Assembly: GCA_964523515.1 (NCBI GenBank)
Contig: CAZFZP010000001.1
Coordinates: 10,079-57,714, forward strand
Reading direction: 5' to 3'
DNA from: an uncultured Gammaproteobacteria bacterium
Lineage (GTDB): Bacteria > Patescibacteriota > Microgenomatia > Daviesbacterales > UBA10151
DNA: 47,636 bases
The position numbers were made by a program, and so were the translations under genes. This document shows positions 29,176-45,308 of the stretch, piece after piece. The notes beneath the pieces were generated by a model. The model worked only from the letters and a program-made list of their open reading frames with translations, made no database searches and was not told the DNA's origin. Numbering within the stretch: the first letter of the stretch is position 1; each line of letters starts with the position of its first letter.

Positions 29176-30853
29176 TGATATCTCTCCAGGCTATTAATAA
29201 AAGAGCTGCTGGATAAAAAACCCTTACAAATGGTGTAGATAAATACGATACTAGAAACAACGCAGGATTTAAAAATTTGGGAGAAATATCTTTTAGCAAA
29301 CCTGGCTTATAGATTAATCTAAATCCATGTCCCTGGACACTATACCCCATTGATTGAAAATCAGCAGGTTTCCAACCAGAAAGATGAACATCATACTTTC
29401 CCGCTTTACGGTGGTTAAATTGAAAGAAGCCATTGATAGTAGCCAAAATCACTCTTTTTTTTGCCAATTTTTCAAGTTTTGTAATTAATTTTAAGGCATC
29501 ACTTTTACTTAAATGTTCTATTGTTTGAGAACATAAAACCACATCGAATTTTTCCTTTGCAAATAATTTCTTAGTAATATCACCTTTAATAAAATTTTTA
29601 AAAACTGGTATTTTACCCACTAATGTTCGGCAATTGGACGCAACTTGCAGATCTTTATTATTAATATCTACTCCTGTAACAAAATACTCACCTCGGTAGT
29701 TAACCCAGCTCATCAAATGCCCATCTCCACATCCTACATCAAGTACTGTAGATCCAGTTGGAATTAATTTTTTTATTTCAGCTGGATATGTCCAAGGTAA
29801 AGTATACTGGATTTTTTTTATCGTGAACTTGTCTAATACTACCGCTTTGATCTTACCAATCAAATCAGTTTTGGAAAACAACGAAATAATCTCTTTATCA
29901 TATTTTACACCAATATCCTGCCTAATCCTTTGTCTAGCTGTGATTAGTCTAGGAAAACTTTTAATTACCCAAATAACAGACATTGGTCTGGTCAACGCCA
30001 AGAAAAGTTTTTGATTAATCAGCATATCCCAAACAAATGTAAATAAATAGATGATCAAAGTTATTGGTAAAGATTTTAAAAGCAGTACCAGCGGGTAATT
30101 TCTAATCATAGTAGACAGACGATTTTTATTAAAATGCCACCTAACTTTAACCTTTACCATCACTGAAGAATCTGTAACAGCTCTTTTGTGAAAACAAACC
30201 GCATCTTTAATTCTCATTATCTTAAATCCCATTTGCCTAAATCTTAAAGAGTGATCCATGTCCTCATACCCGATTCCATACTCAGGATCATACAACCCAA
30301 CTTTTAGCAAAACTGATTTTTTTATCAAACAAGCAGCACCCGTAGCAGATAAGATCTCCTCATCTTTGTTGTACTGACCTATATCTGTAGTTTGATAACC
30401 TAAGGTTACTGGATTTCCATAAATATCTATACTCTCACCAGCACTATCAATTATTTTGTGATCCAAAGCCCATAACAACTTTCCTTGGGCTATTGCTAGT
30501 TTCGGATATTTACTAAACGCTGCCAATAATTTATGTAAGTACTTATCCTTAAGCTCAATATCGTTATTAAAAAGCGCAATATATTCTCCCCGAGATTGTT
30601 GAAAAGCTAAGTTCACTCCTTGCGAATACATATTTATAGGATTTTTTATAATCTTAAATCTGTGGTCATCTCCAAAAATCCTACCTGCAACTTTTACACT
30701 ATCGTCCGTTGAAGCGTTGTCTACTAGTAGAAATTCGAAGTTAGAATAGTCAACTTTTTTAAAATTTTGTAAACATTCTTGTAGAGTGTTCAATTTGGCA
30801 CCATTATAATTAGAGACAATGATTGATATTAACGGATACTTTTTAGTTTTCAA
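29162..30853 (-). CDS. Fusion protein: N-terminal GT2, central TM segments, C-terminal class I SAM methyltransferase
   Basis: 563 aa. The GT2 part has ISIIVSNYNG, LVDNASTDDS, FNND, and GYEDMDHSLRFRQMGFKI. The hydrophobic segment is YPLVLLLKSLPITLIIYLFTFVW. The methyltransferase part has VLDVGCGDGHLMS, GVDINNKDL, and VVLCSQTIEHL. Confidence 0.75.
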   Translation of the reverse strand: MKTKKYPLISIIVSNYNGAKLNTLQECLQNFKKVDYSNFEFLLVDNASTDDSVKVAGRIFGDDHRFKIIKNPINMYSQGVNLAFQQSRGEYIALFNNDIELKDKYLHKLLAAFSKYPKLAIAQGKLLWALDHKIIDSAGESIDIYGNPVTLGYQTTDIGQYNKDEEILSATGAACLIKKSVLLKVGLYDPEYGIGYEDMDHSLRFRQMGFKIMRIKDAVCFHKRAVTDSSVMVKVKVRWHFNKNRLSTMIRNYPLVLLLKSLPITLIIYLFTFVWDMLINQKLFLALTRPMSVIWVIKSFPRLITARQRIRQDIGVKYDKEIISLFSKTDLIGKIKAVVLDKFTIKKIQYTLPWTYPAEIKKLIPTGSTVLDVGCGDGHLMSWVNYRGEYFVTGVDINNKDLQVASNCRTLVGKIPVFKNFIKGDITKKLFAKEKFDVVLCSQTIEHLSKSDALKLITKLEKLAKKRVILATINGFFQFNHRKAGKYDVHLSGWKPADFQSMGYSVQGHGFRLIYKPGLLKDISPKFLNPALFLVSYLSTPFVRVFYPAALLLIAWRDINEKT

Positions 30854-31773
30854 TTTAGATCCTTATTCGTTTTTAGGATGTTACCATATCTCCTAGGAGA
30901 TGTAACTCCTTCCATATATCCTCTACAAAACTGCATAAAACCTGTAAAATTTTTTTCCTTAAAACAAATAACCGCAAAGTATATTAAATAGACCGGAGAA
31001 AAAAATAAAAAAATATAGAAATTCTTTCCGAAATCCCTCATAAAAATAACCCTGTTGCGCCCTATCCAAAAACTACGACTTATTAATCTAACGCGCTCGT
31101 CCTTTTTTAAAGGTGAGATGTTGTGATATGCAATGGCATTTGGGCTGTACAAAGTGACAAAACCATTTTTTTTAGCTCTGAAACAAAAGTCAGTGTCCTC
31201 GTAGGTAGCAAAATAGCGATTATCAAATCTTGTGACCTTTTTTAAGACAGCTCGTTTAACTAGTATTGCTGCGGGAGCTACCTGAACTTCCTCAATCTTT
31301 TCATATTGCCCCACATCCCTACCTCCCCTAAATAAAATCTGTCCTGTCCAAAGATTGATATTAGTTCCAGCTGCCCAAATTCTTTTCCGGTCTCTATTGT
31401 AGTATATTTTCGGTGTCGTGATTCCAACAGCCTTATTCGACTTTACAGCTGCCACTAAATTTTCCAACATTTTTTTATCAGCAACCATATCATGATCAAA
31501 AAATAATAAGTAATCGCTCCTTTTACTAGATTGGTCTATGCCAATATTTCTACCTCCTGTTACACCAAGATTGTAATTTAATGTCATAAATTTCACCTGG
31601 GGAAAATCTTTTGTTATTTTCTTGGTTGTATTATCAGTTGAGGCGTTATTTACAACTATTATCTCCAAAGGCTTTAAACTTTGCTGATAAATAGATTTGA
31701 TACAAGCCTGTAGAGTGTTCCAGCTATTGTATGTAGGAATAATTACTGATACAAGCCGGCCCGAGGAACTCAT
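30850..31773 (-). CDS. Glycosyltransferase family 2
   Basis: 307 aa. Motifs: VSVIIPTYNS, VVNNASTDNT, FFDHD, and YEDTDFCFRAKKNGF. Confidence 0.85.
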   Translation of the reverse strand: MSSSGRLVSVIIPTYNSWNTLQACIKSIYQQSLKPLEIIVVNNASTDNTTKKITKDFPQVKFMTLNYNLGVTGGRNIGIDQSSKRSDYLLFFDHDMVADKKMLENLVAAVKSNKAVGITTPKIYYNRDRKRIWAAGTNINLWTGQILFRGGRDVGQYEKIEEVQVAPAAILVKRAVLKKVTRFDNRYFATYEDTDFCFRAKKNGFVTLYSPNAIAYHNISPLKKDERVRLISRSFWIGRNRVIFMRDFGKNFYIFLFFSPVYLIYFAVICFKEKNFTGFMQFCRGYMEGVTSPRRYGNILKTNKDLN

Positions 31774-33608
31774 TCTTCATTCAGTAGCAATTTTTGTTTT
31801 ATTTTTTCTGTTACATTTAGCAAAGACTGTTGCTCCATCCTAATTCCATAAAGATTTACAATAGACTTGGGATTCTCCTTAATGTATTTAACAAGATCCG
31901 GGTAATTTTCATAATACAAACCTGTACCCATATGCGGATCCCAGCCATACTTTAAACTTGTTCTAAACAGAAATCCAAAATACAGTGTTTCAAATAAAGT
32001 TTCTTTATCAAGTTGATTTTCTGCAGATTCAAACCATAAGATAGGTGGGTTAGATTTTGAAAACTCAATTTTATTAGGTACAATTTCTGTAAATTGCTGC
32101 CATATATTATTAGCCAAAAATCGGTTATGAGTTAAGGCCTTATTGTCAAAAAATGCTTTAGTATTAACCGCATGACTGAAGATCATCAACAGTACCAGAC
32201 AAAGAGTGGTAACCCGCAGCAATTTACTCTGAAAATGATAGCCCAAAGTTAATATTCCTGCTAAAAACAACGGAACGCTGGGACCAGTTGTAATTAAATA
32301 ACGGTGGTAAGTCCCCAAAACGGGTCCACCATTCATAAACAAAGGGAGTAATAAAAAGGAGAATGACCAAAGCAGAGTAATTAAAAATAAATCTTTTATG
32401 TGAGTGGATAAGCCTTTTGTAAGAACTAAAAATGTACAGATGATCATAAAATATCCACCAAATAAAGTAAGTGCCAAATTTATCCATGATGTAAAATTTA
32501 ATGGTCCTTGTTTTAAGACAAGGTAAACAACTATAGTCCATAACAAACCGAAAGAAAAAAGGGACAAAAATTTGGGTGTCAGATGAGTAGCAACATCCTT
32601 TCTTTTAGAAAAAACACCCGTTATCACCCAAGTAATCCCGCCAAATATAAACAGACTGGGAATTATTACGGAACGAAATTGACTGCTCCCCAAAAATGAA
32701 AAAGATTTAGGAAAGTTTAAATTAGACCAAGTCATATCAGGTAATAGAACGACGCCTAGATTAGTGGTCGGAGAAAGCAAAAAATCGAATTTAGATAGGT
32801 TAATCTGATACCAAAATGCTTCCAACCCAACGCCAATGATGTATTTTTGTGAATAATCTGACTCCATTTGGCCAAGTAAAAATTTATCAACCAGAATGAA
32901 AATAGCGAAACCTACAAACCAGAAAATTAAATTTCTGAGGCTATTCTTGGATCTTAAAGTAATTAGCTTATAAAGACTCCAGGCCAAAATTACGATTACA
33001 AACCCACTAGTCCTCATAGTTGCATACCAAATCCCCAGACAAGCTAGAAAAAAAGACACTGACCAGGTCTTAATTTTAAAATTTGTGGGTAAATCAAGCC
33101 CAATATAGATACTTAAAGTTATAAAAATTAGACCAATATAGGCATACATATTAAAGACCCAGTGGGTTGCTTCAACACCAGCAAAAGAAACCGCTAACAG
33201 TAGTGAGCAAATAAGTGCAACAAATCCATTTCTGCACAGTTTATTGATAAGTAAATACCAAACAATCACTGAAATAAATTTTAGGAGGACTGCAATTGAG
33301 TAATAAGCGAAGGCATTTAACCCAAACAGGTCTTTAATAATATCAAATGTTAAGGTTGCTCCACCTAAGCTAGTGCGCATATTTCTCCAAAAATCCTCGT
33401 TAAACATAGCGTTGCCATATGCCTTAATATACGCCCATGCATACTGCCAAGTATCACCTTGAAGCTCCAATGAAAACACACCCCAATATATATATAAAAT
33501 GAGGGCTAGGTTTAAAAACATGACAAGACAAATAAATTTAAAATTCAAGGATAATAACTTCAGCATATTATCTATTCTTATTTTCTCTATTTTGCACAAG
33601 CATAGCAA
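31770..33608 (-). CDS. Polytopic membrane protein of unknown family, GT-C-like architecture (member 1 of a 3-paralog set)
   Basis: 612 aa with at least 12 hydrophobic segments plus a C-terminal soluble domain of about 130 aa. The motif ELQGDTWQYAW follows TM1. The likely true start is the internal MLKLLSL (about 33566), just after the upstream stop. Confidence 0.5.
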   Translation of the reverse strand: MLCLCKIEKIRIDNMLKLLSLNFKFICLVMFLNLALILYIYWGVFSLELQGDTWQYAWAYIKAYGNAMFNEDFWRNMRTSLGGATLTFDIIKDLFGLNAFAYYSIAVLLKFISVIVWYLLINKLCRNGFVALICSLLLAVSFAGVEATHWVFNMYAYIGLIFITLSIYIGLDLPTNFKIKTWSVSFFLACLGIWYATMRTSGFVIVILAWSLYKLITLRSKNSLRNLIFWFVGFAIFILVDKFLLGQMESDYSQKYIIGVGLEAFWYQINLSKFDFLLSPTTNLGVVLLPDMTWSNLNFPKSFSFLGSSQFRSVIIPSLFIFGGITWVITGVFSKRKDVATHLTPKFLSLFSFGLLWTIVVYLVLKQGPLNFTSWINLALTLFGGYFMIICTFLVLTKGLSTHIKDLFLITLLWSFSFLLLPLFMNGGPVLGTYHRYLITTGPSVPLFLAGILTLGYHFQSKLLRVTTLCLVLLMIFSHAVNTKAFFDNKALTHNRFLANNIWQQFTEIVPNKIEFSKSNPPILWFESAENQLDKETLFETLYFGFLFRTSLKYGWDPHMGTGLYYENYPDLVKYIKENPKSIVNLYGIRMEQQSLLNVTEKIKQKLLLNEE

Positions 33609-34149
33609 TATGAGAAAATGGATACCAGAAAGGGGCTTTCACAGATTTTATGGAATATATATACTCCATCTTCTCAAATAAATTAGCCCATTCCTCACTA
33701 TCTCTAAAGGTTAGTGGTGTTTCTAAACCATGATAATGAAGATTGTTTAAAATTATATCAAATACTTTACCAAAAAAAGTTGGTTCAACTTCAAAAATTA
33801 ATAGTTGTCTAGATACTCTAAGACCTTCTTTGATAATATTTATTTGGTAGGATTTACTTGTATGGTGCAAGACATCATTTAATATAGCCTTATCAAAGGA
33901 TTTATCTTTAAAGGGCAGTTTACCTTGTCTTGGAATCTTATGAAACGGCAGATCAACTGTTAAATAGTTTACAATGTCACATCCAATGATAGTAGATCTA
34001 AAGCTTTTTTTAATCATGATACTGGTTATCCCAGTACCACAACCAATATCTAATATGTTGTCTCTCTTTTTAATCCAACCCTTAAAGGATTTAATAATCA
34101 GTTTGCTGCGAAATGGAGAAGTAAATTGAGCAACCTGTAAGATATTCAT
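33568..34149 (-). CDS. Class I SAM-dependent methyltransferase
   Basis: 193 aa. Motifs: ILDIGCGTGITS, GCDIVN, and KAILNDVLHH. Confidence 0.75.
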   Translation of the reverse strand: MNILQVAQFTSPFRSKLIIKSFKGWIKKRDNILDIGCGTGITSIMIKKSFRSTIIGCDIVNYLTVDLPFHKIPRQGKLPFKDKSFDKAILNDVLHHTSKSYQINIIKEGLRVSRQLLIFEVEPTFFGKVFDIILNNLHYHGLETPLTFRDSEEWANLFEKMEYIYSIKSVKAPFWYPFSHIAMLVQNRENKNR

Positions 34150-34154
34150 ACTTT

Positions 34155-35030
34155 TTATAGATGCACATTTTGAGACAGAATTTTCTTTAATTCTAATTTA
34201 GAAACTAACTGAACCTCACTAATATAGTCTTCATGTTTTTTCTCACCCGGTAACGACCCCATAACTTCAATCTTAGTTTTAGCATCCCCAAACAACTCTA
34301 TGAAAGCTTGTGCCAAATCTTTAAGTAAATATTTTTTAGTAAATTTAATAGGATAATATATCTCCATAGGGTTAACAACTTTTTTTAAGGCAACCTCTAC
34401 TACATACTCGGCAGCATCTTGGGGTGTAACAAAATATCTAGTCATATCCGGATCAGTTATTTTTATTGCGTTGTTTTGTATTAGCTGTCTTTTCCAAACA
34501 TCAGTCACAGACCCTCTAGAACCCAACAGATTCGGGCAACGGATAATTAAATATTGGTTGTGATATAACTCATTACTTTCTCGAACTAAGTACTCTCCCA
34601 CTAATTTGGTAGCACCATAACAATTTATTACTCCAATAGCTTTATCTGATGAAACATGAATAAATCGCTTGATTAACGAACTATTATCTAGCAGATTTAA
34701 CAGACCGGTTACATTTATTCTGTGAGCTTCTCGAGGGTTTTGTTCTGCTAAAGAAACATGTTTGATCGCTGCAGTATGAAACACTACGTCAACCTCCTGC
34801 ATTAAACGGGATATTAGATGAGTATCAGTAATATCACCCAGTTTAAATTTAACTGGGGAAAAACCTACCTCTACTTCAGCTTCTTTGATTAAATTCTCAT
34901 CGCGACTAATAGAAATTATATTTTTAGCACCCTTTGCCGATAATATTTTTATAATATTTCTACCAAAAGTTCCGCTACCACCGGTAATTAAAAATCGCGT
35001 CTGTTTAATATTGAGAGTTTTTTTTACCAT
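34155..35030 (-). CDS. PseB/FlaA1/CapD-like (Polysacc_synt_2) UDP-GlcNAc 4,6-dehydratase, short form
   Basis: 291 aa, colinear with H. pylori FlaA1/PseB as I recall it. Matching segments: FLITGGSGTFG, SRDE, GDITD, HTAAIKHVSLAEQNPREAHRINVTG, SSDKAIGVINCYGATK, LGSRGSV, ITDPDMTRYFVT, and LPGEKKHE. An A8 run begins at codon 3. Confidence 0.8.
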   Translation of the reverse strand: MVKKTLNIKQTRFLITGGSGTFGRNIIKILSAKGAKNIISISRDENLIKEAEVEVGFSPVKFKLGDITDTHLISRLMQEVDVVFHTAAIKHVSLAEQNPREAHRINVTGLLNLLDNSSLIKRFIHVSSDKAIGVINCYGATKLVGEYLVRESNELYHNQYLIIRCPNLLGSRGSVTDVWKRQLIQNNAIKITDPDMTRYFVTPQDAAEYVVEVALKKVVNPMEIYYPIKFTKKYLLKDLAQAFIELFGDAKTKIEVMGSLPGEKKHEDYISEVQLVSKLELKKILSQNVHL

Positions 35031-35047
35031 TGCTTAAAACTTGAAAC

Positions 35048-35076
35048 ATACTAAATTAAAGTAGGATTTTTGTAAA
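35048..35076 (-). promoter_or_regulatory. Candidate internal sigma70-type promoter in the largest gap of the minus-strand array
   Basis: The minus strand reads TTTACA (plus-strand coordinates 35071..35076), then a 17-nt spacer, then TAGTAT (35048..35053). This sits about 18 nt upstream of the ATG at 35030. In AT-rich DNA the match is weak and could be chance. Confidence 0.2.
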
Positions 35077-35101
35077 GACTCATGTAGATCAATTATTTAC
35101 C

Positions 35102-37054
35102 TTAATTTTGTATTTCATCTAATGTTTGTTGAGTAATATCAATCACGTCCTTATTTTCCAATCTGAAAGCATAAAATGAGCTAATTGGATAAAAAGTCAT
35201 TACTCCATTTTTTCCATATAGAGTGAAGTTTGGATCTTTGCGATCCAACACACAATAACTTGGGAGTATAAATCCTTTCTGTCCTCCTTTAGTTTGGTAA
35301 GCTCTGCTAAGTTGTTCTTTCCGAATAATAAGGGCTGCGCATTTACTATGGAGCTCTCTATCTGGCATATAAATCCAATATGTAAAGCCATTGACAAATC
35401 CCTGTTCATAAAATTCTCCATTTTTAGGGTCTGTGGATGTATCAATAAAGAATGCAGCTGGCTTATCAAAATCATATCCTAATTTACTCAATAACTCTCG
35501 TGCTTGCTGCAACATTATATTATTTTCAGAAAAACTTCTTCCGTGTTTAAGCTTGCCACCGTAGTAATCTTTTATAAGTTCCCTATTCATTTGGAAATAA
35601 CTTAGATAAAAAGCAAAGATCATAACTATCCCAATCACGGTATATTTTTTGTTATCCAGGAATAGTAACTTCCAAAAAACTTTACTTAAAATACTAGCCA
35701 ATGCTAAGTAAATTCCCAATGAGGGAATCATTAAGTAACGGTGTATGGTCGAAAAACTAGTTGATTTATCGGTTAAAATCACAGTTGCAATGATAAAGAT
35801 TAAAGAAAAAGTTGGCCCAATCCATAAGGCAAACAGGTGAGGATCCTTTTTTTGTTCCTCAAGCCATTCCAAAAAAGCTACAAAAGACAGAGTTAAGATA
35901 TATACCCCAATCATGATATTAAAAATTTCAGAAGGATGAATATTAGGCCTTAAGACATGATTTATAACTTGAGGATGTAAAAAAGGCAGGTAAGAAATAA
36001 AAATAAATGGAAATACGGGAATAAATACCCTTTTGAAGAACCTTTTGGGCCTTTTGGACAAGACGGCAGAAAACAAGCTTGTCAAAGCAATAAAAACAAC
36101 ACTGGGTACAATCAATATATATGTAATATAGCTGCCGTAATTACCATATTTGAAATTAACAAATAACTTACTTGTAACTGATGTAGGGAAAGAGGGCGTA
36201 CCTAATCCAATTATTGGCAATGCAGCTTTAATCCAATCCCCTTTTATTAGTGGTTCAATTATTGGCATACTTTCTAATGGATAAAATGATACCAGCTGGC
36301 GGTTCATAAATAAGATAATAAGCAGCACAGGCAAATAAATTACTGTTAGTCTAAACAAAGATAAGCGAAACTGATGGATAGATTTATGAGTAGCAAGAAT
36401 AAATGTCTCAATTAACATAGGAACTAGCAGTATTGGATAAGCTCGTATCGGGGAAAAAAACATTGACCCTAAAAAAGGAATTGGCAGTAAAAATGCCCAT
36501 TTTAAATCCAATTTATTAGATTTTACCGAAAGATAGTAGATGACTAAAAACATATTGATCATTAATAACGCCCAATAATCACCGGCTAGAATTACCCATT
36601 CCAAAGAGGCTGTAGCAGTAGCACTAATGGCAAATAAAATTGTTGTAAAAAGCGATAGAATTTTATCTTTAAATATTACTAAAACCATAGGAAAAATCGA
36701 AAATGTCGCCAAAGTCTTAATAAGAATATTGGTTAGTTGAAAAGCTGAAATATTACCTCCCCATAATCGTTCTAAGAAATAAATATGATACATTTCATGC
36801 AGAAACCCATAGCCACCACCTCTCAGGTTATCAGTAATATTTATTAGGTGATTAGTAGTCAAAGTTTTTGACCAAAGCAGTACCTTCCAATCATCACCGT
36901 GCAAACCCATGCCTAATAATATTTCTAAAGTACTGTAATTAAGAATAAACAAAAATATGAAAAACACAGATGAAAAGATTAATATATTTTGGTAATTACT
37001 ACCCAATAATAAATATTGTTTCTTAATCCACGTTTTTGACATGTAATTTATCAC
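35102..37054 (-). CDS. Polytopic membrane protein of unknown family, GT-C-like architecture (member 2 of the paralog set)
   Basis: 650 aa with about 13 hydrophobic segments plus a C-terminal soluble domain of about 170 aa. The motif GLHGDDWKVLLW follows TM1. The segment KTLATFSIFP is shared with 43761..45308. Its start overlaps the stop of the upstream DPM1-like GT2 by 4 nt. Confidence 0.5.
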   Translation of the reverse strand: MINYMSKTWIKKQYLLLGSNYQNILIFSSVFFIFLFILNYSTLEILLGMGLHGDDWKVLLWSKTLTTNHLINITDNLRGGGYGFLHEMYHIYFLERLWGGNISAFQLTNILIKTLATFSIFPMVLVIFKDKILSLFTTILFAISATATASLEWVILAGDYWALLMINMFLVIYYLSVKSNKLDLKWAFLLPIPFLGSMFFSPIRAYPILLVPMLIETFILATHKSIHQFRLSLFRLTVIYLPVLLIILFMNRQLVSFYPLESMPIIEPLIKGDWIKAALPIIGLGTPSFPTSVTSKLFVNFKYGNYGSYITYILIVPSVVFIALTSLFSAVLSKRPKRFFKRVFIPVFPFIFISYLPFLHPQVINHVLRPNIHPSEIFNIMIGVYILTLSFVAFLEWLEEQKKDPHLFALWIGPTFSLIFIIATVILTDKSTSFSTIHRYLMIPSLGIYLALASILSKVFWKLLFLDNKKYTVIGIVMIFAFYLSYFQMNRELIKDYYGGKLKHGRSFSENNIMLQQARELLSKLGYDFDKPAAFFIDTSTDPKNGEFYEQGFVNGFTYWIYMPDRELHSKCAALIIRKEQLSRAYQTKGGQKGFILPSYCVLDRKDPNFTLYGKNGVMTFYPISSFYAFRLENKDVIDITQQTLDEIQN

Positions 37055-37773
37055 TCAGATTTCTTAAATATCATTTCCAACCACATCTGGTATCTAAGTA
37101 AAAGAAGCTGCTGTACTCCTTTAATAGCCCGCTTAACTATCCCGCTACGGGCAGCTCGTAACTCCGATACTTCAATAGGTATTTCGGTAATGCTTAATCC
37201 TTTTTGGTGGGCGCGAATGATTAACTCCGTATCAAAGATTTCACTTCCATAGTGACATTTTTTTATAATGGGAACTGTACTGATTTTTTTTATTACCTTA
37301 ATACCATGAGTGTCGCTAACTGGACAATCAAAAAGAATTCTAGTTAATATGTGAAATATATTCCCGCCAATTTTTCTGATTAATGATCTACGATCTTGGC
37401 TCAGAGAGTTCATCTTCGATGCAACAACAATTGAATGTTTATCAAGTACTGCTATGGCATCATTGAGAAATTTTAAATCAATCCAATCGACCGAAAAATT
37501 TACTATTATTTTTTTAGTAGATTTTAGGTATCCATACCTCAATGCTGCACCATAACTGGGTCTTTCAAGATGAAAATATTTTATCTTTTTATTTGACTGA
37601 GATAATTGCTGTCCTATTCTCGCTGATTCATCAGAACTACCATTTTCTATAATAAGAATTTCAAAATTAGAAGTAAGCGTAGCAAGTTGTTTTTGTAATT
37701 TTAAGATTACTTTTTGAAGTATCTCTGCCTCATTGTAAACAGGTATGACAATCGAGATTGGATGCTGAATCAT
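37051..37773 (-). CDS. GT2, DPM1/GtrB/ArnC-like candidate polyprenol-phosphate sugar synthase
   Basis: 240 aa. Motifs: ISIVIPVYNEAEIL, IIENGSSDES, PSYGAALRYG, RSLIRKIGGNIFHILTRILF..VSDTHGIKV, FDTELIIRA, and ITEIPIEV. Confidence 0.65.
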   Translation of the reverse strand: MIQHPISIVIPVYNEAEILQKVILKLQKQLATLTSNFEILIIENGSSDESARIGQQLSQSNKKIKYFHLERPSYGAALRYGYLKSTKKIIVNFSVDWIDLKFLNDAIAVLDKHSIVVASKMNSLSQDRRSLIRKIGGNIFHILTRILFDCPVSDTHGIKVIKKISTVPIIKKCHYGSEIFDTELIIRAHQKGLSITEIPIEVSELRAARSGIVKRAIKGVQQLLLLRYQMWLEMIFKKSE

Positions 37774-37783
37774 TTTAAAACAA

Positions 37784-38737
37784 CTATTTATCTATTTGAT
37801 TAAACCACTCAACCGTTTTTTGGATTCCCTCTTTTAAAAAAACCTGTGGGGTATATCCTAAAGTCTCACTAGCCTTACTAATATTGGGCTGAAATCTATC
37901 TATATCTCCAAGCCTTCTAGGTACACTACTAATACCTGATATACTTTGAGTCGTTTTTAAAACAATATCAGCTAACTGTTTAATTGTGGTGATCTCAGTG
38001 GTACCTATGTTAAATATTTCCCCCAAGGCTAATGGTGTTGTTGCCGCTTTTACATTGGCTTCTACTACATCGTCTACATATGTAAAACATCGCTCTTGAT
38101 CTCCCGTTCCTTCTATTGTTAGTGGTTGATTACGAAGTGCTTTATCGATAAATATTGGTATAACTCCTCCTGTAGTACTGAAATTCTGCCGAGGTCCATA
38201 TACATTATAGTATCTTAACATTACTGCCTTAATGCCAAACAGGTTACTCCAAAGATCAATATATCTCTCTGCTGCCATCTTACTGATACCGTATGGTGAA
38301 ACTGGCTCTAAGGGATGGCTTTCGTCTTGTGGTTGATATTTTGGCTGACCATAAACTGAACCTGTTGATGAATGAATCAGGGTACTTGTAAGACAATAGT
38401 CTCTTTGTGATTGAAGGATATTAATTACTCCGACGCAGGTAGTCCTTAAATCTTGAATTGGATCCTGAAGAGAGGTTAATAGGTTACCTGATGCCAAATG
38501 AAAAATTATATTTGGTTGTATGTTCTTAATTAACTTTCTTATAAGGATACTATCCTCGACTGCTCCTTTAATAAACTCAAAGTTATTATTATTTTTTGCT
38601 AATTTGAGATTTTTTAGACTTCCTTTTGATAAATTATCAAGACCATAAACATAATATTTTTCCAACAGTAACCGATCCACTAAACTACTACCGATAAAAC
38701 CTGCTGCTCCAGTTACAAAAGCTACTTTATTTTTCAT
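37784..38737 (-). CDS. Extended SDR, NAD-dependent nucleotide-sugar epimerase/dehydratase (GalE-like)
   Basis: 317 aa. Motifs: VAFVTGAAGFIGSSLV, SSTGSVYG, and YGISK (YxxxK). Confidence 0.8.
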   Translation of the reverse strand: MKNKVAFVTGAAGFIGSSLVDRLLLEKYYVYGLDNLSKGSLKNLKLAKNNNNFEFIKGAVEDSILIRKLIKNIQPNIIFHLASGNLLTSLQDPIQDLRTTCVGVINILQSQRDYCLTSTLIHSSTGSVYGQPKYQPQDESHPLEPVSPYGISKMAAERYIDLWSNLFGIKAVMLRYYNVYGPRQNFSTTGGVIPIFIDKALRNQPLTIEGTGDQERCFTYVDDVVEANVKAATTPLALGEIFNIGTTEITTIKQLADIVLKTTQSISGISSVPRRLGDIDRFQPNISKASETLGYTPQVFLKEGIQKTVEWFNQIDK

Positions 38738-39995
38738 ATTCTTTTAACGACTCTACAATTAATGGCTCCGGGATGGGAATAATAAACTTACCACCTTGAT
38801 CTTTAAACCAACTTTCTTTTTCCATAATATTTTGAGCATAGTTCCAAGCAGTGATAACTATGTAGTCAACTGATTTTGATTTTAAAGTTTCGGGAGGAAC
38901 AATTGGAATATGAGTACCGGGTGTATATTTACCTTGTTTGGAAGGAGCACTATCAGTAATATAATCAATTATCCCAGGGCCAATATTACAGTATTGAAGT
39001 AATGTCGTTGCTTTAGCTGAAGCTCCGTACGCTGCAATTCTCTTGCCCTGTTTTTTTAAATCCTTCAACATCTTAGTTAGTTGTTTTTTCACCATTGGGG
39101 GACGGGTAGCAAATTTTTTATACGTTGAAAGTTTGTGTAAACCCAGTTTCTTTTCATTGTCTAAAAACATCCCTACCTTTTTTTTGATCTTATGCGACGA
39201 TTTTTTATGAGCTGCAAACACCATAATTCCCCCTCCATGAGTATCGGTATGTATTACATCAATCATTTTCATACCGTGCATATTTAATAAATATGATAGT
39301 GGAGCTACCGCATGATAGCAGATGTGTTCATGATAAGTATTGTCAAACTCGTTGTGAGAAAGAAGATCAACTAGGTACTGGACCTCAAATACAAAAATCC
39401 CTTTTTCATCGAGTAATTCTTTAACACCCAAGAATATATCGTGCAAAATATCTGTATGAGCCAGAGTATTGTTTGAGGTAATAATCCCCGCTTTACCATA
39501 TTTTTTGATAATCTTGGACACTAAATCTTTATTAAAAAATTCTGCGATAGTTTCGACCTCCTGCTTATTTGCAATCTTCGCTATATTTTTAGCTGGATCT
39601 ATCCCTAGTATTCTTGACCCAAATTTTTTGAAAGGCTTCAGTAGTACTCCATCATTACTTCCAATATCAACCACCAACTGCCTCGATTGGTCTGGGTATC
39701 GCTTAAAAACCTCTGTAGCATACTCCTCAAAATGCCTAACTAACATGGGAGAGGTCGAAGAAAAATATGCATAATCGTTATAAATATAACTTCTATCAAC
39801 AATATGCAAAAGCTGTGCCAGATGGCAGTTGTGACAAAAATAAACCTCTAGCGGAGCCTTAAACTCCTCTTTCTTTAATTCATGTTTATTAAGATATGAA
39901 TTAGCTAGAGCTGCCTTACCCAAAGACAGATATCTTGTTAATTTTTTCTCTTGGCAGATCAAACATTTGTTACTTTTTCTTACCGGGTTATTCAT
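38727..39995 (-). CDS. NDP-hexose C-methyltransferase (TylC3-type: zinc-ribbon N-domain, SAM domain, C-methyltransferase C-domain)
   Basis: 422 aa. N-terminal Cys4 (CLICQEKK...FCHNCHLAQL), SAM motif VVDIGSNDGVLL, and C-domain AAYGASAKATTLLQYCNIG...ITDSAPSKQGKYTPGTHIPIVPPE. Confidence 0.75.
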   Translation of the reverse strand: MNNPVRKSNKCLICQEKKLTRYLSLGKAALANSYLNKHELKKEEFKAPLEVYFCHNCHLAQLLHIVDRSYIYNDYAYFSSTSPMLVRHFEEYATEVFKRYPDQSRQLVVDIGSNDGVLLKPFKKFGSRILGIDPAKNIAKIANKQEVETIAEFFNKDLVSKIIKKYGKAGIITSNNTLAHTDILHDIFLGVKELLDEKGIFVFEVQYLVDLLSHNEFDNTYHEHICYHAVAPLSYLLNMHGMKMIDVIHTDTHGGGIMVFAAHKKSSHKIKKKVGMFLDNEKKLGLHKLSTYKKFATRPPMVKKQLTKMLKDLKKQGKRIAAYGASAKATTLLQYCNIGPGIIDYITDSAPSKQGKYTPGTHIPIVPPETLKSKSVDYIVITAWNYAQNIMEKESWFKDQGGKFIIPIPEPLIVESLKEYEK

Positions 39996-39996
39996 C

Positions 39997-40926
39997 TTAT
40001 GCGATATTATATTGCTTTATATATTTCATATAGTCCTCAATTCCGCTCTTAAGATTGGTTTTCGGAAACCAACCTATGGCTTTTTTTATTTTTTTCCGAT
40101 CCATTGTACCTCGTTTAGGTCGATCCTGAATATCTTTTATTTCATACTCAAATTTAAAGTGAGCTTTTAAAAATTTTACAAAGTGCACCAATTTTTTAGC
40201 TTTTCCTCCACTTATATGATACGTCTCAGAGTTTGGTGCTTTTTGCAGTACATCCGCAATTCCCGACACCAAGTCTTTAACATAAGTAAAATCTAGGTCA
40301 ATGGAGCTGTTTACCCAAAATTTTTCTCCTTTTAGAATCTTATTAATTATCGAGTTCGAAGCCCTACTATTCATATCCCCAAATCCATAAACATTAGTCG
40401 TTCTAATTACATTCCAATTATTTAACTCTGACTTTACAAGAAATTCACCACAAGCCTTGGTTACACCATACGGGGTCTTAGGAACCAACGAATCCATTTC
40501 AGTTATAACATCATCGCAATCTCCATATGCAGCAATTGATGACATGTAAATAAATTTTTTTACTGTTGTTTCTTTAACTGCTTTTATAACTCTATATGTT
40601 AAACCAATGTCTTCGGTTAGTTGTTTAAGAGAAAAGTCAAAATCATCTGCTTTTTCAAGAGGAGTTCCGGCCAAATGTATAACACAATCAAATTTTCCTT
40701 TTTTTAGTATTTTATTACCGACATCCTCGAATTTTCTTTTGTGAATCTTAGCACCCTTTAGAAGTTGCTCCTTTTTGAATTTAGTAATTATTTTTTTAGT
40801 CTTAATGTCCCAGTTTGAGTAATGAACTCCAGGGTCTATTACTACTACTTCAAACTTTCTTGATAATAACTCATGGGTAAGCCATGAACCAACAAATCCC
40901 GCACCTCCAATAACTAAAACCTTCAT
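39997..40926 (-). CDS. Extended SDR, NAD-dependent nucleotide-sugar epimerase/dehydratase/reductase
   Basis: 309 aa. Motifs: VLVIGGAGFVGSWL, SSIAAYG, and YGVTK (YxxxK). It is the first gene after the divergent intergenic region. Confidence 0.75.
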   Translation of the reverse strand: MKVLVIGGAGFVGSWLTHELLSRKFEVVVIDPGVHYSNWDIKTKKIITKFKKEQLLKGAKIHKRKFEDVGNKILKKGKFDCVIHLAGTPLEKADDFDFSLKQLTEDIGLTYRVIKAVKETTVKKFIYMSSIAAYGDCDDVITEMDSLVPKTPYGVTKACGEFLVKSELNNWNVIRTTNVYGFGDMNSRASNSIINKILKGEKFWVNSSIDLDFTYVKDLVSGIADVLQKAPNSETYHISGGKAKKLVHFVKFLKAHFKFEYEIKDIQDRPKRGTMDRKKIKKAIGWFPKTNLKSGIEDYMKYIKQYNIA

Positions 40927-41125
40927 TTATAAAATCCTTCTAGTAATAAATTAAAATGTCTCACTAATTTTGACATTCTACAGCAACTTGAACAGTCTAA
41001 CAATAAGACAGTCTAATCACATCATGTAAATTACTCTGTCACATGATTATAGATCAATGATTACATAAAATGTATTCAAGAAATCAATAGAAATAAAATA
41101 GTTTAAATGATAGTATTAGCTGACG
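40927..41125. promoter_or_regulatory. Divergent intergenic control region (only non-coding stretch over 100 bp)
   Basis: 199 bp between divergently oriented genes. Plus-strand candidate promoter: TTGAAC (40988..40993), 18-nt spacer, TCTAAT (41012..41017). Minus-strand TATAAT at 41046..41051. Direct repeat ACAGTCTAA at 40992..41000 and 41008..41016. Also short repeats TCACAT(C)ATG and ATGATTA. Confidence 0.35.
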
Positions 41126-42079
41126 ATGAAGGCCGCAATTATCGGAATAGGTAACATGGGTAAAAATCATGTCCGGGTTTACTCAGAAATTTCTTCCATT
41201 ACTCTAGTTGCCCTTTCAGACTTAAACGAAACATTAGGCACTCAACTTGCTGAAAAACACCATACCAAATTTTATAGAGATTACGAAGAGATGTTGGAAA
41301 AAGAAGAGATAGATCTTGTCTCTGTTTGTGTACCAACATCATTACATTTTAAAGTGGCTTCTTATTGTCTAAAAAAGAAAGTTCACACTCTTTTGGAAAA
41401 ACCTATTACCTCTAATATTAATGATGCCCAAAAATTAATTAATCTAGCAAAAAGGAATAAGGTTAAGCTACTAGTTGGGCATATTGAAAGATATAACCCC
41501 GCCTTAAGACAAGTTAAAGAAATTGTTGATAGTGGAATATTAGGTAGAATAATTGCCATTACATCTAGAAGGGTGGGTGGATTTCCGCCACAAATTAAAG
41601 ATGTGGATGTGGCCGTTGACCTAGCTATCCATGATATCGATATCTCTAACTATTTATTGGGGGAATTGCCTACTAATATTAGTGTTAATAAACAGCTAAA
41701 TCATACCCGTCGCCGTCCAGATTCTGTGGAATTTTTTTTGAAATACAAAAGAGCATCGAGCTATATTCAAGCCAACTGGATCAGTCCAGTCAAAATTCGA
41801 AAACTTAATATTACAGGCAGTGAAGGATACCTGGAAATGGATTATATAAGTCAAAAAATTGAGATTTATAAAAGCAACTACAGCAAATTTAAAGAGGAAT
41901 CTTCTAATTTTTCGGACTATGTATTGCTTTTTTCTGAGCCAGATATTACGAATGTGTCTGTAAAGAAAAAAGAACCTCTCAAAGAGGAGATTCTGTTCTT
42001 TATAGATTGCATTAAAAATAATATCGATCTAGATTCATTATTTGCTTTAAAGGCATTAGAAATAAGTTTAAAAAAATGA
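41126..42079 (+). CDS. Gfo/Idh/MocA-family NAD-dependent sugar-nucleotide 3-dehydrogenase (WlbA/WbpB-like)
   Basis: 317 aa. Motifs: MKAAIIGIGNMGKNH, LEKPIT (EKP motif), and GHIERYNP. It is first in a gene order identical to wlbA-wlbB-wlbC. Confidence 0.75.
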   Translation: MKAAIIGIGNMGKNHVRVYSEISSITLVALSDLNETLGTQLAEKHHTKFYRDYEEMLEKEEIDLVSVCVPTSLHFKVASYCLKKKVHTLLEKPITSNINDAQKLINLAKRNKVKLLVGHIERYNPALRQVKEIVDSGILGRIIAITSRRVGGFPPQIKDVDVAVDLAIHDIDISNYLLGELPTNISVNKQLNHTRRRPDSVEFFLKYKRASSYIQANWISPVKIRKLNITGSEGYLEMDYISQKIEIYKSNYSKFKEESSNFSDYVLLFSEPDITNVSVKKKEPLKEEILFFIDCIKNNIDLDSLFALKALEISLKK

Positions 42080-42630
42080 TTCATCCATCAGCCGAAATTG
42101 CATCTTCAGCCAAAATAGGTAAACGAACTAAGATTTGGCATCATGCTCAGATTAGAGAAAACGTTCTAATTGGATCTGATTGTATAATCTCAAAGGGGGT
42201 TTACATCGATAAAGATTCTCAAATAGGTAACACAGTCAAAATCCAAAACTATACAAGTGTTTATCATCAAACTGTTATAGAAGATGGTGTTTTTATAGGG
42301 CCATATGTCTGCGTGACAAATGATAAATTTCCACGCTCTACTACAAACGAGGGGAAACTAAAAACTGACGGTGATTGGAAGTCACATATTACTATAATTA
42401 AGCAAGGCGCTTCTATTGGGGCAGGCTCAATTTTACTACCAGGCTTAACCATTGGGGAATTTTCTCTTGTCGGGGCAGGCTCTTTAGTGACAAGGGACGT
42501 ACCCTCTCATGCACTTATTTATGGATCACCTGCGAGAATAGTTGGTTTTGTATGTCGGTGTGGCAATCACATCTCACGAGGACAGCAAAAACCCAAAATT
42601 TTGTGGTGCATAGAATGTCTCAAAAAATGA
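42076..42630 (+). CDS. Hexapeptide N-acetyltransferase, WlbB/WbpD-like (3-amino-sugar N-acetyltransferase)
   Basis: 184 aa. Segments IHPSAEI...IGKRTKIWHHAQI, IGNTVKIQNYTSVY, EDGVFIGPYVCVTNDKFPRS, and GAGSLVTRDVPSHALIYGSPARIVG are colinear with WlbB as I recall it. The C-terminal tail has CRCG...WCIEC. 4-nt overlaps on both sides. Confidence 0.8.
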   Translation: MIHPSAEIASSAKIGKRTKIWHHAQIRENVLIGSDCIISKGVYIDKDSQIGNTVKIQNYTSVYHQTVIEDGVFIGPYVCVTNDKFPRSTTNEGKLKTDGDWKSHITIIKQGASIGAGSILLPGLTIGEFSLVGAGSLVTRDVPSHALIYGSPARIVGFVCRCGNHISRGQQKPKILWCIECLKK

Positions 42631-43736
42631 CTCACCCCATCCCAATTGCTAAACCTATCATTACCCAAAAAGAGATTAATGAAGTAGTTAAAGTATTAAG
42701 ATCTGGACACCTCTCACAAGGAAAATGGGTCGAAGAGTTTGAGAAAGACTTTGCTAAATTTATTGGCAGCAAATTTGCTATCGCAACCAGTAGTGGCACC
42801 GCAGCACTTTATTTGGCCCTATTGTCTCTGGGAATAAAAGCACACGATGAGGTTGTCACTACCTCTTTTTCCTTTATTGCCTCATCAAACGCCATAATAT
42901 ATCTGGGAGCAAAACCTGTCTTTGTAGATATTAATCCCCATACTTATAATATCGATACAGATTTAATTGAAAAATATATTACTCCTCGTACTAGAGCTAT
43001 ACTTCCAGTCCATCTTTACGGACTACCAGCAGATATGATTAAAGTTCGGAAGATTGCAAAACGTTATAACCTGATTGTCATTGAGGATGCCTGCCAAGCA
43101 CATGGTGCTTCAATAAAGTCTAAAAAAGTCGGTACTTTTGGGGATGCTGGTTGTTTCTCTTTTTATCCAACTAAAAATATGACTACTGGAGAGGGTGGAG
43201 TGATCACAACAAATAGCGCAAAGTTAGCTAAAAAAATTAAATTACTAAGAGAACATGGAATGAGGAAACGTTACCATCATGAGATATTAGGATTCAATTT
43301 TCGGATGACCAATATTAGCGCAGCCTTAGGAATAGAACAACTCAAAAAGCTACCAGAATATAATCTGCAAAGAGTCAAAAATGCGGCTTTTCTTACATCT
43401 AGGTTATCCCCTATAAAACAACTACTCACCCCTTCAATTCCTAACGGATTTAATCATGTTTTTCATCAGTATACTATTCAAATCAGGCAGGGAAAGATTG
43501 TCCGGGAAAAACTGATGCAATTCTTAAGTCAAAATGGAGTATCTACAGTGATTTATTATCCGATCCCTATCCACAAGCAAAAATTTATGAAACAACAATA
43601 CAAAAATCTTAATCTTGTACAAACTCAAGCCATTTCCCAACAAGTGCTATCACTTCCTGTTCATCCCAATTTAAGTTACAAAGAATTACAAAAAATTACT
43701 GATTTAATTAACCTTTTTTATAAAAATCAAGTGTAA
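42627..43736 (+). CDS. DegT/DnrJ/EryC1-family PLP aminotransferase (WlbC/WbpE-like)
   Basis: The track ORF starts at 42552. I prefer ATG 42627 (MTHPIPIAKPIIT...), which forms an ATGA overlap with the upstream stop. ATG 42615 is also possible. Motifs: ATSSGTAAL, IEDACQAHG, and FSFYPTKNMTTGEGG, with the catalytic Lys present (AAA at 43173..43175). Confidence 0.8.
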   Translation: MTHPIPIAKPIITQKEINEVVKVLRSGHLSQGKWVEEFEKDFAKFIGSKFAIATSSGTAALYLALLSLGIKAHDEVVTTSFSFIASSNAIIYLGAKPVFVDINPHTYNIDTDLIEKYITPRTRAILPVHLYGLPADMIKVRKIAKRYNLIVIEDACQAHGASIKSKKVGTFGDAGCFSFYPTKNMTTGEGGVITTNSAKLAKKIKLLREHGMRKRYHHEILGFNFRMTNISAALGIEQLKKLPEYNLQRVKNAAFLTSRLSPIKQLLTPSIPNGFNHVFHQYTIQIRQGKIVREKLMQFLSQNGVSTVIYYPIPIHKQKFMKQQYKNLNLVQTQAISQQVLSLPVHPNLSYKELQKITDLINLFYKNQV

Positions 43737-43760
43737 GTGTTTAGCGAGATAATATACCGA

Positions 43761-45308
43761 TTATTGACTAAGTAAAAGTCGCACCTCATCTGTTATATCA
43801 GAGATTCTTTTATCTCTAATACGGTAAGCATAGACTCCTTGTATTAAATCTTCTTTCGACCATCTCTCGGACTTTTTTAAATCAAGATCTTTTTTTAAAA
43901 TTTTCAGGTCATCGTATACAACCGGGTAAAACTGTTTGTCCCAGGTCTTAGAGAGCACCATAATTTTAAACCCCAAGCCAAAGATCACAGAGTGTGCAAC
44001 CCTAGCATCATCTACATCTAAATAAATGGCAACTGGTGCTTTTATCGGAGAGGTAAATCTGTTAACAATCTGTTGCTCAGTTAATTTTATAAACTCACTC
44101 GATCTTCCATTTTCCAACCAATATCTATAGATCGCTTTGGTTGAGGAAAGGTGGATCAGAATCAATAAAACTAACACAACGTACACCAATACTCGAGGTA
44201 AAGAATTATTCTTAATGACCAAAAAAAGAATTACAGTCAGATAAAACAATAGAGTCACAAAGTTAACCCACAGATACCGATGCGAAGAGTCGATTAACAG
44301 TATTGGGTTGTAGTACCACATTTCCAACATAAAGATTAAAAAGTTGCATCCAAATATTGCACTCCATAAATAGCTGTTATTTCCTTTGACCAGTTTTAAG
44401 ATCGTTACTAATATAGATAATAAAATTATGGAGCCAATGAGTTTTATACTAAATAATCCTAAGATCGAACCATCTGGTACTACTAAGACACCTAGCCAAT
44501 GTAAATAAGTTCCAATGGCACCCGGGATATCAGATATAACAACTGATAGGAACTTATTGAATGACCACTCCCCATATGAGTATACGCCAAAAGGCCCGCC
44601 AAAAAGACCAGCTCCCCATAGACTGACTACTATTAGCAAAAATCCTACAAACTTTACAAAAATCTGCCTCACTTTTTGATAATCTTTGCGATAAATTAGC
44701 AAGATTATAAAATCCATCACCGGGATGGCGAAAACTAATGGAAACATCCTGACTGATCCACTGATTAAAGATAGTGTTATAAAAAGTAGATGTAACCACA
44801 GATCTTTAGTTTTGAATCGTTGATAGAAGTTAATTTGAAAATAGGTACTAATAATATAAAAAGCGGAGGCTAGATAAATATTCATGTAGTGTGCCCAATC
44901 CGTATTTTGAATACCGGTATAACTAACTAAGAAAAAGAGGGCTATCAAGAAGCTTAGGAGCTTAACCTGGGAGTTTGTTTGTTTAATCATCGTTCTCCCT
45001 ATCTCCTGGCAAAATAAGTAGATCGAGAAGGTCGCAAACATCCTGAACAGGAATGAAACTATGTAATATGGCATATAGTCTGTCCCGAATATTTTATAAA
45101 GATTACCGACAATGAAAAAAGATGATCCCCATGGAGCTAAGTATTTTAAAATACCCGGCAGAGGCGAAAAGTATGGGTATTGATCCCGGCCATTTTCACT
45201 AATGAATTCATAAATATCTATCCATTCATCGCCATAAATAGCCAGCAAGAAACTAGCATGATGAGTGAAAATACCTACTAAAAATAGTATTAGAAATATT
45301 AAAATCAC
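43761..45308 (-). CDS. Polytopic membrane protein of unknown family, GT-C-like architecture (member 3 of the paralog set)
   Basis: 515 aa with about 12 hydrophobic segments plus a C-terminal soluble domain of about 130 aa. The motif AIYGDEWIDIYEF follows TM1, and RMFATFSIYLF is present. Confidence 0.5.
   Translation of the reverse strand: MILIFLILFLVGIFTHHASFLLAIYGDEWIDIYEFISENGRDQYPYFSPLPGILKYLAPWGSSFFIVGNLYKIFGTDYMPYYIVSFLFRMFATFSIYLFCQEIGRTMIKQTNSQVKLLSFLIALFFLVSYTGIQNTDWAHYMNIYLASAFYIISTYFQINFYQRFKTKDLWLHLLFITLSLISGSVRMFPLVFAIPVMDFIILLIYRKDYQKVRQIFVKFVGFLLIVVSLWGAGLFGGPFGVYSYGEWSFNKFLSVVISDIPGAIGTYLHWLGVLVVPDGSILGLFSIKLIGSIILLSILVTILKLVKGNNSYLWSAIFGCNFLIFMLEMWYYNPILLIDSSHRYLWVNFVTLLFYLTVILFLVIKNNSLPRVLVYVVLVLLILIHLSSTKAIYRYWLENGRSSEFIKLTEQQIVNRFTSPIKAPVAIYLDVDDARVAHSVIFGLGFKIMVLSKTWDKQFYPVVYDDLKILKKDLDLKKSERWSKEDLIQGVYAYRIRDKRISDITDEVRLLLSQ

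Follow-up and report, generated by a model that had tools for sequence, protein, structure and literature searches.

The DNA considered here is a 47,636-nucleotide stretch (the window, meaning the whole 47-kb locus that was analysed) from an uncultured groundwater bacterium, Candidatus Daviesbacteria, and it carries a surface-sugar gene cluster. Our subject is three of its open reading frames (ORFs), A, B and C, which encode polytopic membrane proteins. An earlier note, made from the sequence alone, had described them as paralogs that share a GD[T/D/E]W motif directly after the first hydrophobic helix, and the ORF list has all three genes and their motifs as described (Table 1). A second motif reported for two of the proteins is likewise present in B and C, and a weaker version of it occurs in A. 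Residues are numbered according to the long ORFs, which begin with TTG in A and with GTG in B. The likely true start of A is the ATG at 33566, giving a protein of 598 amino acids (aa), the same length as its 92%-identical homolog P0001; for B the likely start is the ATG at 37042, giving 646 aa and matching P0044.

Table 1. Positions in the window of the three membrane proteins, their conserved motifs and the adjoining glycosyltransferase (GT) genes (TM, transmembrane helix; nt, nucleotides)
Feature	Residues	Position	Strand	Remarks
Protein A		31770..33608	-	Predicted 13-TM GT-C-fold membrane protein; 612 aa from TTG
A, GDTW	51-54	33447..33458	-	Loop-1 acidic motif; proposed catalytic Asp, D52
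A, KFISVIVWY	110-118	33255..33281	-	TM2 motif; conserved basic K110
A, THWV	148-151	33156..33167	-	Conserved Trp; predicted outside turn TM3-TM4
A, MRTSG	198-202	33003..33017	-	R199; predicted outside turn TM5-TM6
A, HRYL	435-438	32295..32306	-	Predicted outside loop preceding TM12
Protein B		35102..37054	-	B-type subfamily; 650 aa from GTG
B, GDDW	53-56	36887..36898	-	Loop-1 acidic motif
B, KTLATFSIF	113-121	36692..36718	-	TM2 motif
B, IRAYP	203-207	36434..36448	-	Counterpart of A R199
B, HRYL	438-441	35732..35743	-	
Protein C		43761..45308	-	C-type subfamily; 515 aa
C, GDEW	26-29	45222..45233	-	Loop-1 acidic motif
C, RMFATFSIY	89-97	45018..45044	-	TM2 motif
C, VRMFP	186-190	44739..44753	-	Counterpart of A R199; R187 invariant in alignment A3
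C, HRYL	343-346	44271..44282	-	
GT2 directly upstream of B		37051..37773	-	240 aa; Pfam Glycos_transf_2
GT2 beside A		30850..31773	-	307 aa; start overlaps A stop by 4 nt; generic rhamnosyltransferase-like
GT4 beside C		45305..46495	-	Stop overlaps C start by 4 nt; Pfam Glycos_transf_1

The GDxW motif is conserved throughout the homologs of these proteins. Across 156 diverse relatives, each the representative of a 50%-identity cluster, the consensus following TM1 is L-x-L-x-G-D-D-[W/Y/F]. The first Asp (D52 in A) is kept in 148/152 (95% of the 156 members), while 135 have the Gly, 131 an Asp at the second acidic position and 147 an aromatic residue (W/Y/F); the first Asp persists where the second acidic residue is gone, as in PGDAY and SDVDW. 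Several positions beyond those picked out in the earlier note are also near-invariant, namely W150, Y157, R199, G285, P290, G384 and the R436-Y437 pair of the HRYL motif, which is found in A, B and C. In the same 156 members, conservation reaches 100% at R199, 99% at Y437, 92% at R436 and 83% at W150, and position 110 is R or K in 154/156, inside a TM2 motif of the form [RK]xxA[AST]xSx[YF]. A smaller alignment of 19 sequences has D52, R199, G384 and Y437 invariant and G51, W54, W150, Y157, P290 and R436 conserved at 90% or more.

The three proteins are homologous, if distantly so, as had been proposed. BLASTP aligns A with B (E = 6e-6 over ~450 residues) and A with C (E = 1e-7, with the GDxW motifs in register); a direct BLASTP comparison of B with C gives no significant match, and pairwise identities among the three are 15-19%. 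The missing B–C match, together with the frequency at which short motifs recur by chance in low-complexity membrane proteins, would be what one expects if the shared GDxW were a functionally meaningless resemblance between unrelated hydrophobic proteins. That reading is already refuted and retains next to no probability: A aligns significantly with both B and C, a single profile matches all three at E<=1e-64 (the family profile's matches in the window's own genome have E-values of 1.8e-237, 1.1e-146 for B, and 1.9e-84 plus 2.8e-64), and the first Asp is retained almost universally in an alignment whose mean column identity is 23%. GDxW is a motif under strong selection, beyond chance.

The earlier note had gone on to suggest that the family expanded within this locus, which is misleading. 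In a tree of the 156 family members, B and C belong to separate clades, each with support 1.0, of 21 representatives (median length 626 aa) and 14 representatives (median 514 aa), respectively; A is among the remaining members, and the patristic distances among the three are ~4.6. Each type also keeps its own neighbours in other genomes: (i) a methyltransferase and a CapD-like dehydratase, then A, then a GT2-methyltransferase and further GT2s; (ii) a small GT2 and a methyltransferase, then B and (iii) a GT4, then C, beside a divergent oxidoreductase/acetyltransferase/aminotransferase operon. At locus L041, for example, the same GT4-then-C order stands beside a divergent GFO_IDH_MocA/Hexapep/DegT operon. 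A recent local expansion is rejected by the tree and by this subfamily synteny. Given their separate deep clades, and their own orthologs and conserved neighbours elsewhere, A, B and C represent ancient subfamilies that probably differ in function and are repeatedly found together. Genomes contain up to five copies, usually 10–20 kb apart or less and sometimes directly adjacent, and other loci with two or three paralogs exist. We also note a metagenome contig (L039, the locus of a B-type homolog) on which three members of 610, 601 and 589 aa, with differing loop-1 motifs (SPDD, SDVDW and PGDAY), share 8 kb with two methyltransferases and two small GT2 genes.

A profile built from the 19-sequence alignment and searched against 1.84 billion representative proteins recovers 330 representative clusters with E-values of 1e-30 or lower, a number that rises to 743 when the threshold is relaxed to E<=1e-10. 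Of 301 genomes sampled from the class, 17 contain members at the stricter threshold, mainly in two families (f1, 7/19 genomes plus the window's own; f5, 5/18). It has so far escaped annotation. When A, B and C are scanned against Pfam and NCBIfam, only noise is returned (SLATT_3, Tetraspanin and CrgA, all with E>0.01), five diverse stand-alone relatives match no Pfam or NCBIfam model, and none of 43 homologs of A carries a Pfam domain; the named homologs are 'hypothetical protein' entries of Candidatus Daviesbacteria and Woesebacteria. The Pfam PMT_2 model (PF13231) matches neither A, B and C, even at E<=10, nor any of ten diverse members, and the Pfam PMT, MIR and TPR models have no match in A, B or C. 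A literature search on GT-C enzymes in the candidate phyla radiation (CPR; Patescibacteria) found no paper describing the family. It is thus a sizeable family that has no Pfam or NCBIfam model and is unannotated.

The membrane topology was assessed by taking helix boundaries from a model of A and counting Lys and Arg (K+R) residues in 122 full-length members. Every predicted inside loop contains 25–30 K+R per 100 aa and every predicted outside loop 0.2–11, with overall values of 27.8 inside and 6.9 outside. The GDxW-bearing loop 1, in which the motif lies 5–10 residues past TM1, has 6.0 K+R per 100 aa and is therefore assigned to the outside, where the earlier note had also expected it. The predicted arrangement has the N-terminus inside and the GDxW loop, W150, R199, the HRY motif and the C-terminal domain outside. 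All of the conserved polar residues thus fall on one face of the membrane, as expected of an outward-facing active site.

Structure prediction points to the GT-C fold. The AlphaFold2 model of A (predicted local distance difference test score, pLDDT, 86.4; predicted template modelling score, pTM, 0.86) contains 13 helices of membrane length, several short ones in the first loop, the first of which (H51-64) begins with GDTW, and a C-terminal alpha/beta domain of ~120 aa. When this model is compared with the PDB using Foldseek, 18 of the 20 best matches are STT3, PglB, AglB, DPY19 or ArnT, each with a probability of 1.00; PMT structures rank lower and align partially (about 270 columns). The model of C (pLDDT 86.0, pTM 0.88), which has about 11 such helices and likewise ends in a small alpha/beta domain, finds STT3, PglB or ArnT in all of its 15 best matches (E 1.8e-5 to 1e-3, TMq 0.36–0.53), followed by AftA, AftB and AftD. 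An alignment gap removes ~80 residues from the middle part of C, which we take to be the end of a long outside loop and two TM helices. Each of the three proteins is accordingly predicted to have a cytoplasmic N-terminus, 13 TM helices (about 11 in C), an outside loop 1 with juxtamembrane helices, and an outside C-terminal domain of ~120 aa.

A second line of evidence comes from a sequence bridge to annotated proteins. A search of 301 genomes of the phylum with the family profile also matched distant proteins at E 1e-11 to 1e-23. One of these, L008, is matched at E = 8.5e-23 (73.9 bits over family-profile positions 5–394 in hmmsearch) and itself passes Pfam PMT_2, with 33.4 bits against a cut-off of 26.1. 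Four others (L014, L015, L026 and L032; E 1e-11 to 1e-16) carry C-terminal TPR repeats, an architecture that resembles that of TMTC proteins; of these, L014 additionally matches PMT_2 below threshold, and L015 weakly matches TMTC_DUF1736. In the hmmsearch alignments, the family's GDDW falls on the [S/W]DD[Y/I] of these relatives (SDDY in L008) with top posterior confidence, and GVEATHW aligns with HPLxxEAVAW of the PMT_2/TMTC-like relatives, so that E146 and W150 of A correspond to the E..W motif of the TMTC-like proteins. R199 occupies the place of their 'SKE/KET' motif.

The DD motif of such enzymes has been aligned with the active sites of ArnT (D55/E56), Pmt1 (D77/E78) and EmbB (D281/D282), and the Lys of the KET motif has been assigned to the phosphate of the donor, Dol-P-Man (Eisenhaber et al., PMC7801869). 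As judged from these alignments, GDxW is the form taken in this family by the known DD/DE active-site motif that the TMTC, PMT, ArnT and Emb enzymes have in loop 1. The suggestion that A, B and C form an uncharacterised GT-C clade is supported, with the refinement that the motif itself is one already known from GT-C loop 1 (PMC7801869). None of the outcomes named in the earlier note as refuting it was observed: the motif is conserved in homologs and predicted to face the outside, and neither structure nor sequence leads to a non-glycosyltransferase family, since the Foldseek matches are almost exclusively GT-C and the sequence links are to PMT_2 and to TPR-fused TMTC-like proteins.

Three independent lines (fold, sequence bridge and topology) place the family in the GT-C class, in keeping with the interpretation first offered for these genes. 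We consider it very probable that the three proteins are ancient paralogs within an unannotated family of membrane-embedded glycosyltransferases with the GT-C fold, a divergent branch beside the PMT_2/TMTC-like group.

The genes adjoining the paralogs bear on the source of the sugar. The small GT2 upstream of B has a near-full-length PDB match to ArnC (aa 5–202, E 4e-8) and shorter N-terminal matches to GtrB, and its NCBIfam matches (ArnC, dolichyl-phosphate hexose transferase and PpgS) are all far below cut-off. It is a candidate ArnC/GtrB/DPM1-like polyprenyl-phosphate sugar synthase, that is, a maker of donor. A small GT2 also lies near the B-type homolog in L039/L040. Beyond the paralogs, the window encodes recognised GT-C enzymes (two of the PMT_2 type and one AftD-like) as well as a Wzx-type flippase and a Wzy_C protein. 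There are three small GT2 genes of 236–253 aa, all on the minus strand (14861..15622, 16571..17281 and 37051..37773), and twice such a gene is immediately upstream of a GT-C-type gene: that at 14861 precedes the PMT_2 gene at 13455, and that at 37051 precedes B. These two arrangements suggest that synthase-transferase pairs are repeated along the locus.

Gene fusions provide a further view of the same partnership. Five relatives of about 880–900 aa (P0111, P0137, P0148, P0186 and P0127) have an N-terminal GT2 fused to the GT-C-like module, and in the first four the fused GT2 is the ortholog of the window GT2 that overlaps A, its best match over the full length at E 1e-46 to 1e-54. The two modules are joined by a Pro-containing hydrophobic segment and an amphipathic 'YW.G.FSG' helix. 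We considered whether this hydrophobic segment between GT2 and the DD motif might flip the topology of the fusions, placing DD inside. The linker right before TM1 of the module is strongly K/R-rich, for example KCKNKDKKEKTK, and the stand-alone GT2 ends in a K/R-rich tail, from which a cytoplasmic C-terminus of the GT2 module would follow. On these two grounds the flipped topology is rejected, by inference rather than proof; the K/R-rich stretch agrees with a GT2 in the cytoplasm and a DD motif on the outer side. At the opposite end of the protein, two members from a genome of the same family as the window's own (genome G274; L007:505-3291 and L034:301-2442, both on the minus strand) end in a galactose-binding-like domain of the F5/8-type-C class, matched by Pfam at E 5e-15 and 5e-11, with loop-1 motifs QDDS and QDEW, not GDDW. 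Such fusions fit a C-terminus that faces glycans outside the cell.

For the donor type, the roles of the catalytic residues and the acceptor, we infer a scheme that follows the GT-C chemistry described in PMC7801869 and general knowledge of ArnT, PMT and PglB. Cytoplasmic enzymes of the locus would make unusual nucleotide sugars, and a GT2, for instance the ArnC/GtrB-like enzyme encoded next to B, would load the sugar onto polyprenyl phosphate. The lipid-linked sugar would then be flipped to the outer face, where the GT-C enzyme would transfer the sugar to an outside acceptor. In this scheme the loop-1 Asp of GDxW (D52 in A) would act as the catalytic base or as an acceptor-activating residue, and R199, R436-Y437 and R/K110 of TM2 may hold the donor phosphate. 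A lipid-phosphate donor on the outer face is what the ArnC/GtrB-like GT2 beside B and the conserved outside Arg and Tyr residues would suggest. Because each type keeps its own sugar-pathway neighbours, each paralog probably adds a different sugar to, or carries out a different step on, a surface glycan or glycoprotein of the locus.

Several observations weigh against this assignment or parts of it. The TM-scores to solved GT-C structures are modest (0.31–0.53, with Foldseek E-values of 1e-5 to 1e-3), so that matches of the predicted models establish fold class and not close kinship. A profile of 123 family sequences searched with hmmsearch against PDB sequences matches no solved GT-C, nor does phmmer of B against PDB sequences find one; the best PDB sequence match, between the C-terminal domain and TagU (E = 0.08), is non-significant and we do not interpret it. 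Comparison of the family profile with the window's two PMT_2 proteins, as single sequences, by hhalign likewise gives nothing, and for this reason an apparent alignment of R and RY in the protein at 13455..14864, obtained by forced hmmalign, was discarded as evidence. Within the motif, the second acidic position varies, being T in A, E in C and A or V in some relatives, and the proposal of D52 as the catalytic Asp comes from sequence alignment and from its position in the loop. The fused GT2 is generic and rhamnosyltransferase-like, not clearly a polyprenyl-phosphate sugar synthase. Finally, no dedicated GtrA-type flippase is present within the window, the one GtrA domain lying on another contig.

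The remoteness of the similarity to proven enzymes, from which activity is deduced, also leaves some room for proteins that have a GT-C-like fold and do another job: a glycan polymerase or ligase, a flippase for lipid-linked sugars, or a non-catalytic scaffold that binds polyprenyl-phosphate glycans. The residues peculiar to the family (R199 where others have Lys, R/K110 of TM2 and the HRY motif) could be read in this way. We regard such a role as improbable. Catalysis is favoured by the loop-1 Asp, which is almost invariant and falls on the active-site motif of GT-C enzymes in alignments; the locus already encodes a Wzx-type flippase and a Wzy_C protein; and among the Foldseek matches no transporter or Wzy/WaaL structure appears at a probability comparable to those of the GT-C enzymes.

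If A, B and C are GT-C glycosyltransferases, the more serious question is what they glycosylate. They could be PMT/TMTC-like O-glycosyltransferases acting on Ser/Thr of secreted, pilus or S-layer proteins, a sub-case that differs from the scheme above in the acceptor alone. The nearest named sequence relatives, PMT_2 and the TPR-fused TMTC-like proteins, point in this direction, as do the best structural matches, which are the protein glycosyltransferases STT3, PglB, DPY19 and PMT; Foldseek rank among GT-C classes is, however, weak evidence on acceptor type. The three proteins have no MIR or TPR acceptor-binding domain in Pfam, and close relatives carry galactose-binding-like F5/8-type-C domains instead. 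Moreover, the paralogs are embedded among glycan-building GT2/GT4 and nucleotide-sugar genes in a locus that has a Wzx flippase and a Wzy_C protein. A protein acceptor is thus a serious alternative, though distinctly the less probable one; the conserved gene neighbourhoods and the fusions to sugar-binding domains make it more likely that the acceptor is a glycan or a lipid-linked glycan.

The recurrent GT2 fusions and the tight one-to-one gene coupling also raise the idea of self-contained two-sided machines, in which the GT2 charges polyprenyl phosphate inside and the attached GT-C uses it outside, possibly flipping it too. The absence of a dedicated small flippase from the window, with a single GtrA domain in the 0.8-Mb genome, would fit such an arrangement. 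We think it unlikely, but if true it would constitute a minimal glycosylation route suited to reduced CPR genomes.

Two comparisons help to place the family among known GT-C systems: (i) with its relatives in sequence and (ii) with its relatives in fold and gene organization. Like PMT_2 proteins (the bacterial ArnT/PMT-like group of GT-C clan CL0111), members of the family are polytopic with the N-terminus predicted inside and have an acidic motif immediately behind TM1, with further conserved motifs on the outside following TM3 and TM5, and the L008 match covers profile positions 1–394. They differ from PMT_2 in having R199 at the 'SKE' place, an R/K110, an HRY motif and a C-terminal alpha/beta domain of their own. 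With TMTC1-4 and the bacterial TMTC-like O-mannosyltransferases they share a loop-1 DD followed by an aromatic or aliphatic residue and the E..W after TM3. The TMTCs, however, have C-terminal TPR repeats and are described with 11 TM helices, whereas the family has no TPR, a predicted 13 TM helices and a different C-terminal domain. The PMT enzymes proper (GT39; PF02366 plus lumenal MIR) are set apart by the lack of any PMT or MIR match in A, B and C.

The best Foldseek matches of both models are STT3, PglB and AglB, with which the family shares a 13-TM GT-C_A architecture and an outside C-terminal domain. Unlike these enzymes, it shows no sequence similarity to them and no WWDYG-type motif was seen; TM-scores are 0.35–0.53, and its C-terminal domain is much smaller (about 120 aa). 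In gene organization the closest parallel is with pairs of a GT2 synthase and a GT-C transferase, among them ArnC-ArnT, GtrB-GtrC, CsbB-YfhO and GacI-GacL. B resembles these pairs in having an adjacent GT2, a candidate synthase, and the models of A and C both match ArnT in structure. The differences are that the small GT2 of B has none of the C-terminal TM helices of ArnC/GtrB, that there is no ArnT sequence match and no adjacent GtrA or ArnE/F-type flippase, and that A pairs with a generic GT2 and C with a GT4.

These results propose a function for a sizeable family of 'hypothetical' proteins that comprises 330 or more clusters at the 50% identity level and occurs chiefly in CPR bacteria of the Microgenomates type. 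Members of the CPR have very small cells, are for the most part uncultured and rely on surface contact with hosts, so that surface glycans probably have a central place in their biology. With A, B and C, the two PMT_2 proteins and the AftD-like one, this 47-kb locus of a 0.8-Mb genome encodes no fewer than six enzymes of the GT-C type, an unusually heavy investment in outer-face glycosylation. The signature GDD[W/Y/F] after TM1, [RK]xxA[AST]xSx[YF] in TM2, E..W, R199 and HRY can guide mutagenesis and seed a new family model, and the GT2 and F5/8-type-C fusions offer handles on donor and acceptor. The assignment should be useful for annotating CPR surface glycosylation; it reveals no new kind of system and will not surprise a specialist.

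Three further observations concern genes outside the family. The sole GtrA_DPMS_TM domain found in the 0.8-Mb genome (L036, G000:C7:17958-18344, plus strand, 78.7 bits) sits inside a 414-aa open frame and may be fused to another domain, possibly a GT2. In the window, 12083..13504 on the minus strand encodes a 473-aa polytopic membrane protein that matches neither Pfam nor the family described here. Its gene lies directly downstream of, and overlaps, the PMT_2 gene at 13455..14864, itself preceded by the 253-aa GT2 (14861..15622), and it may be another unrecognised GT-C-like protein. About 30 kb past the end of the window (L005, G000:C1:85044-88697), two tandem genes encode polytopic proteins of 550 aa and at least 432 aa; the former has 'NWDEVS' after TM1 and a weak match to the family profile (E = 1.9e-4), and by motif and hydrophobic pattern both look like GT-C proteins of the PMT_2/ArnT type.

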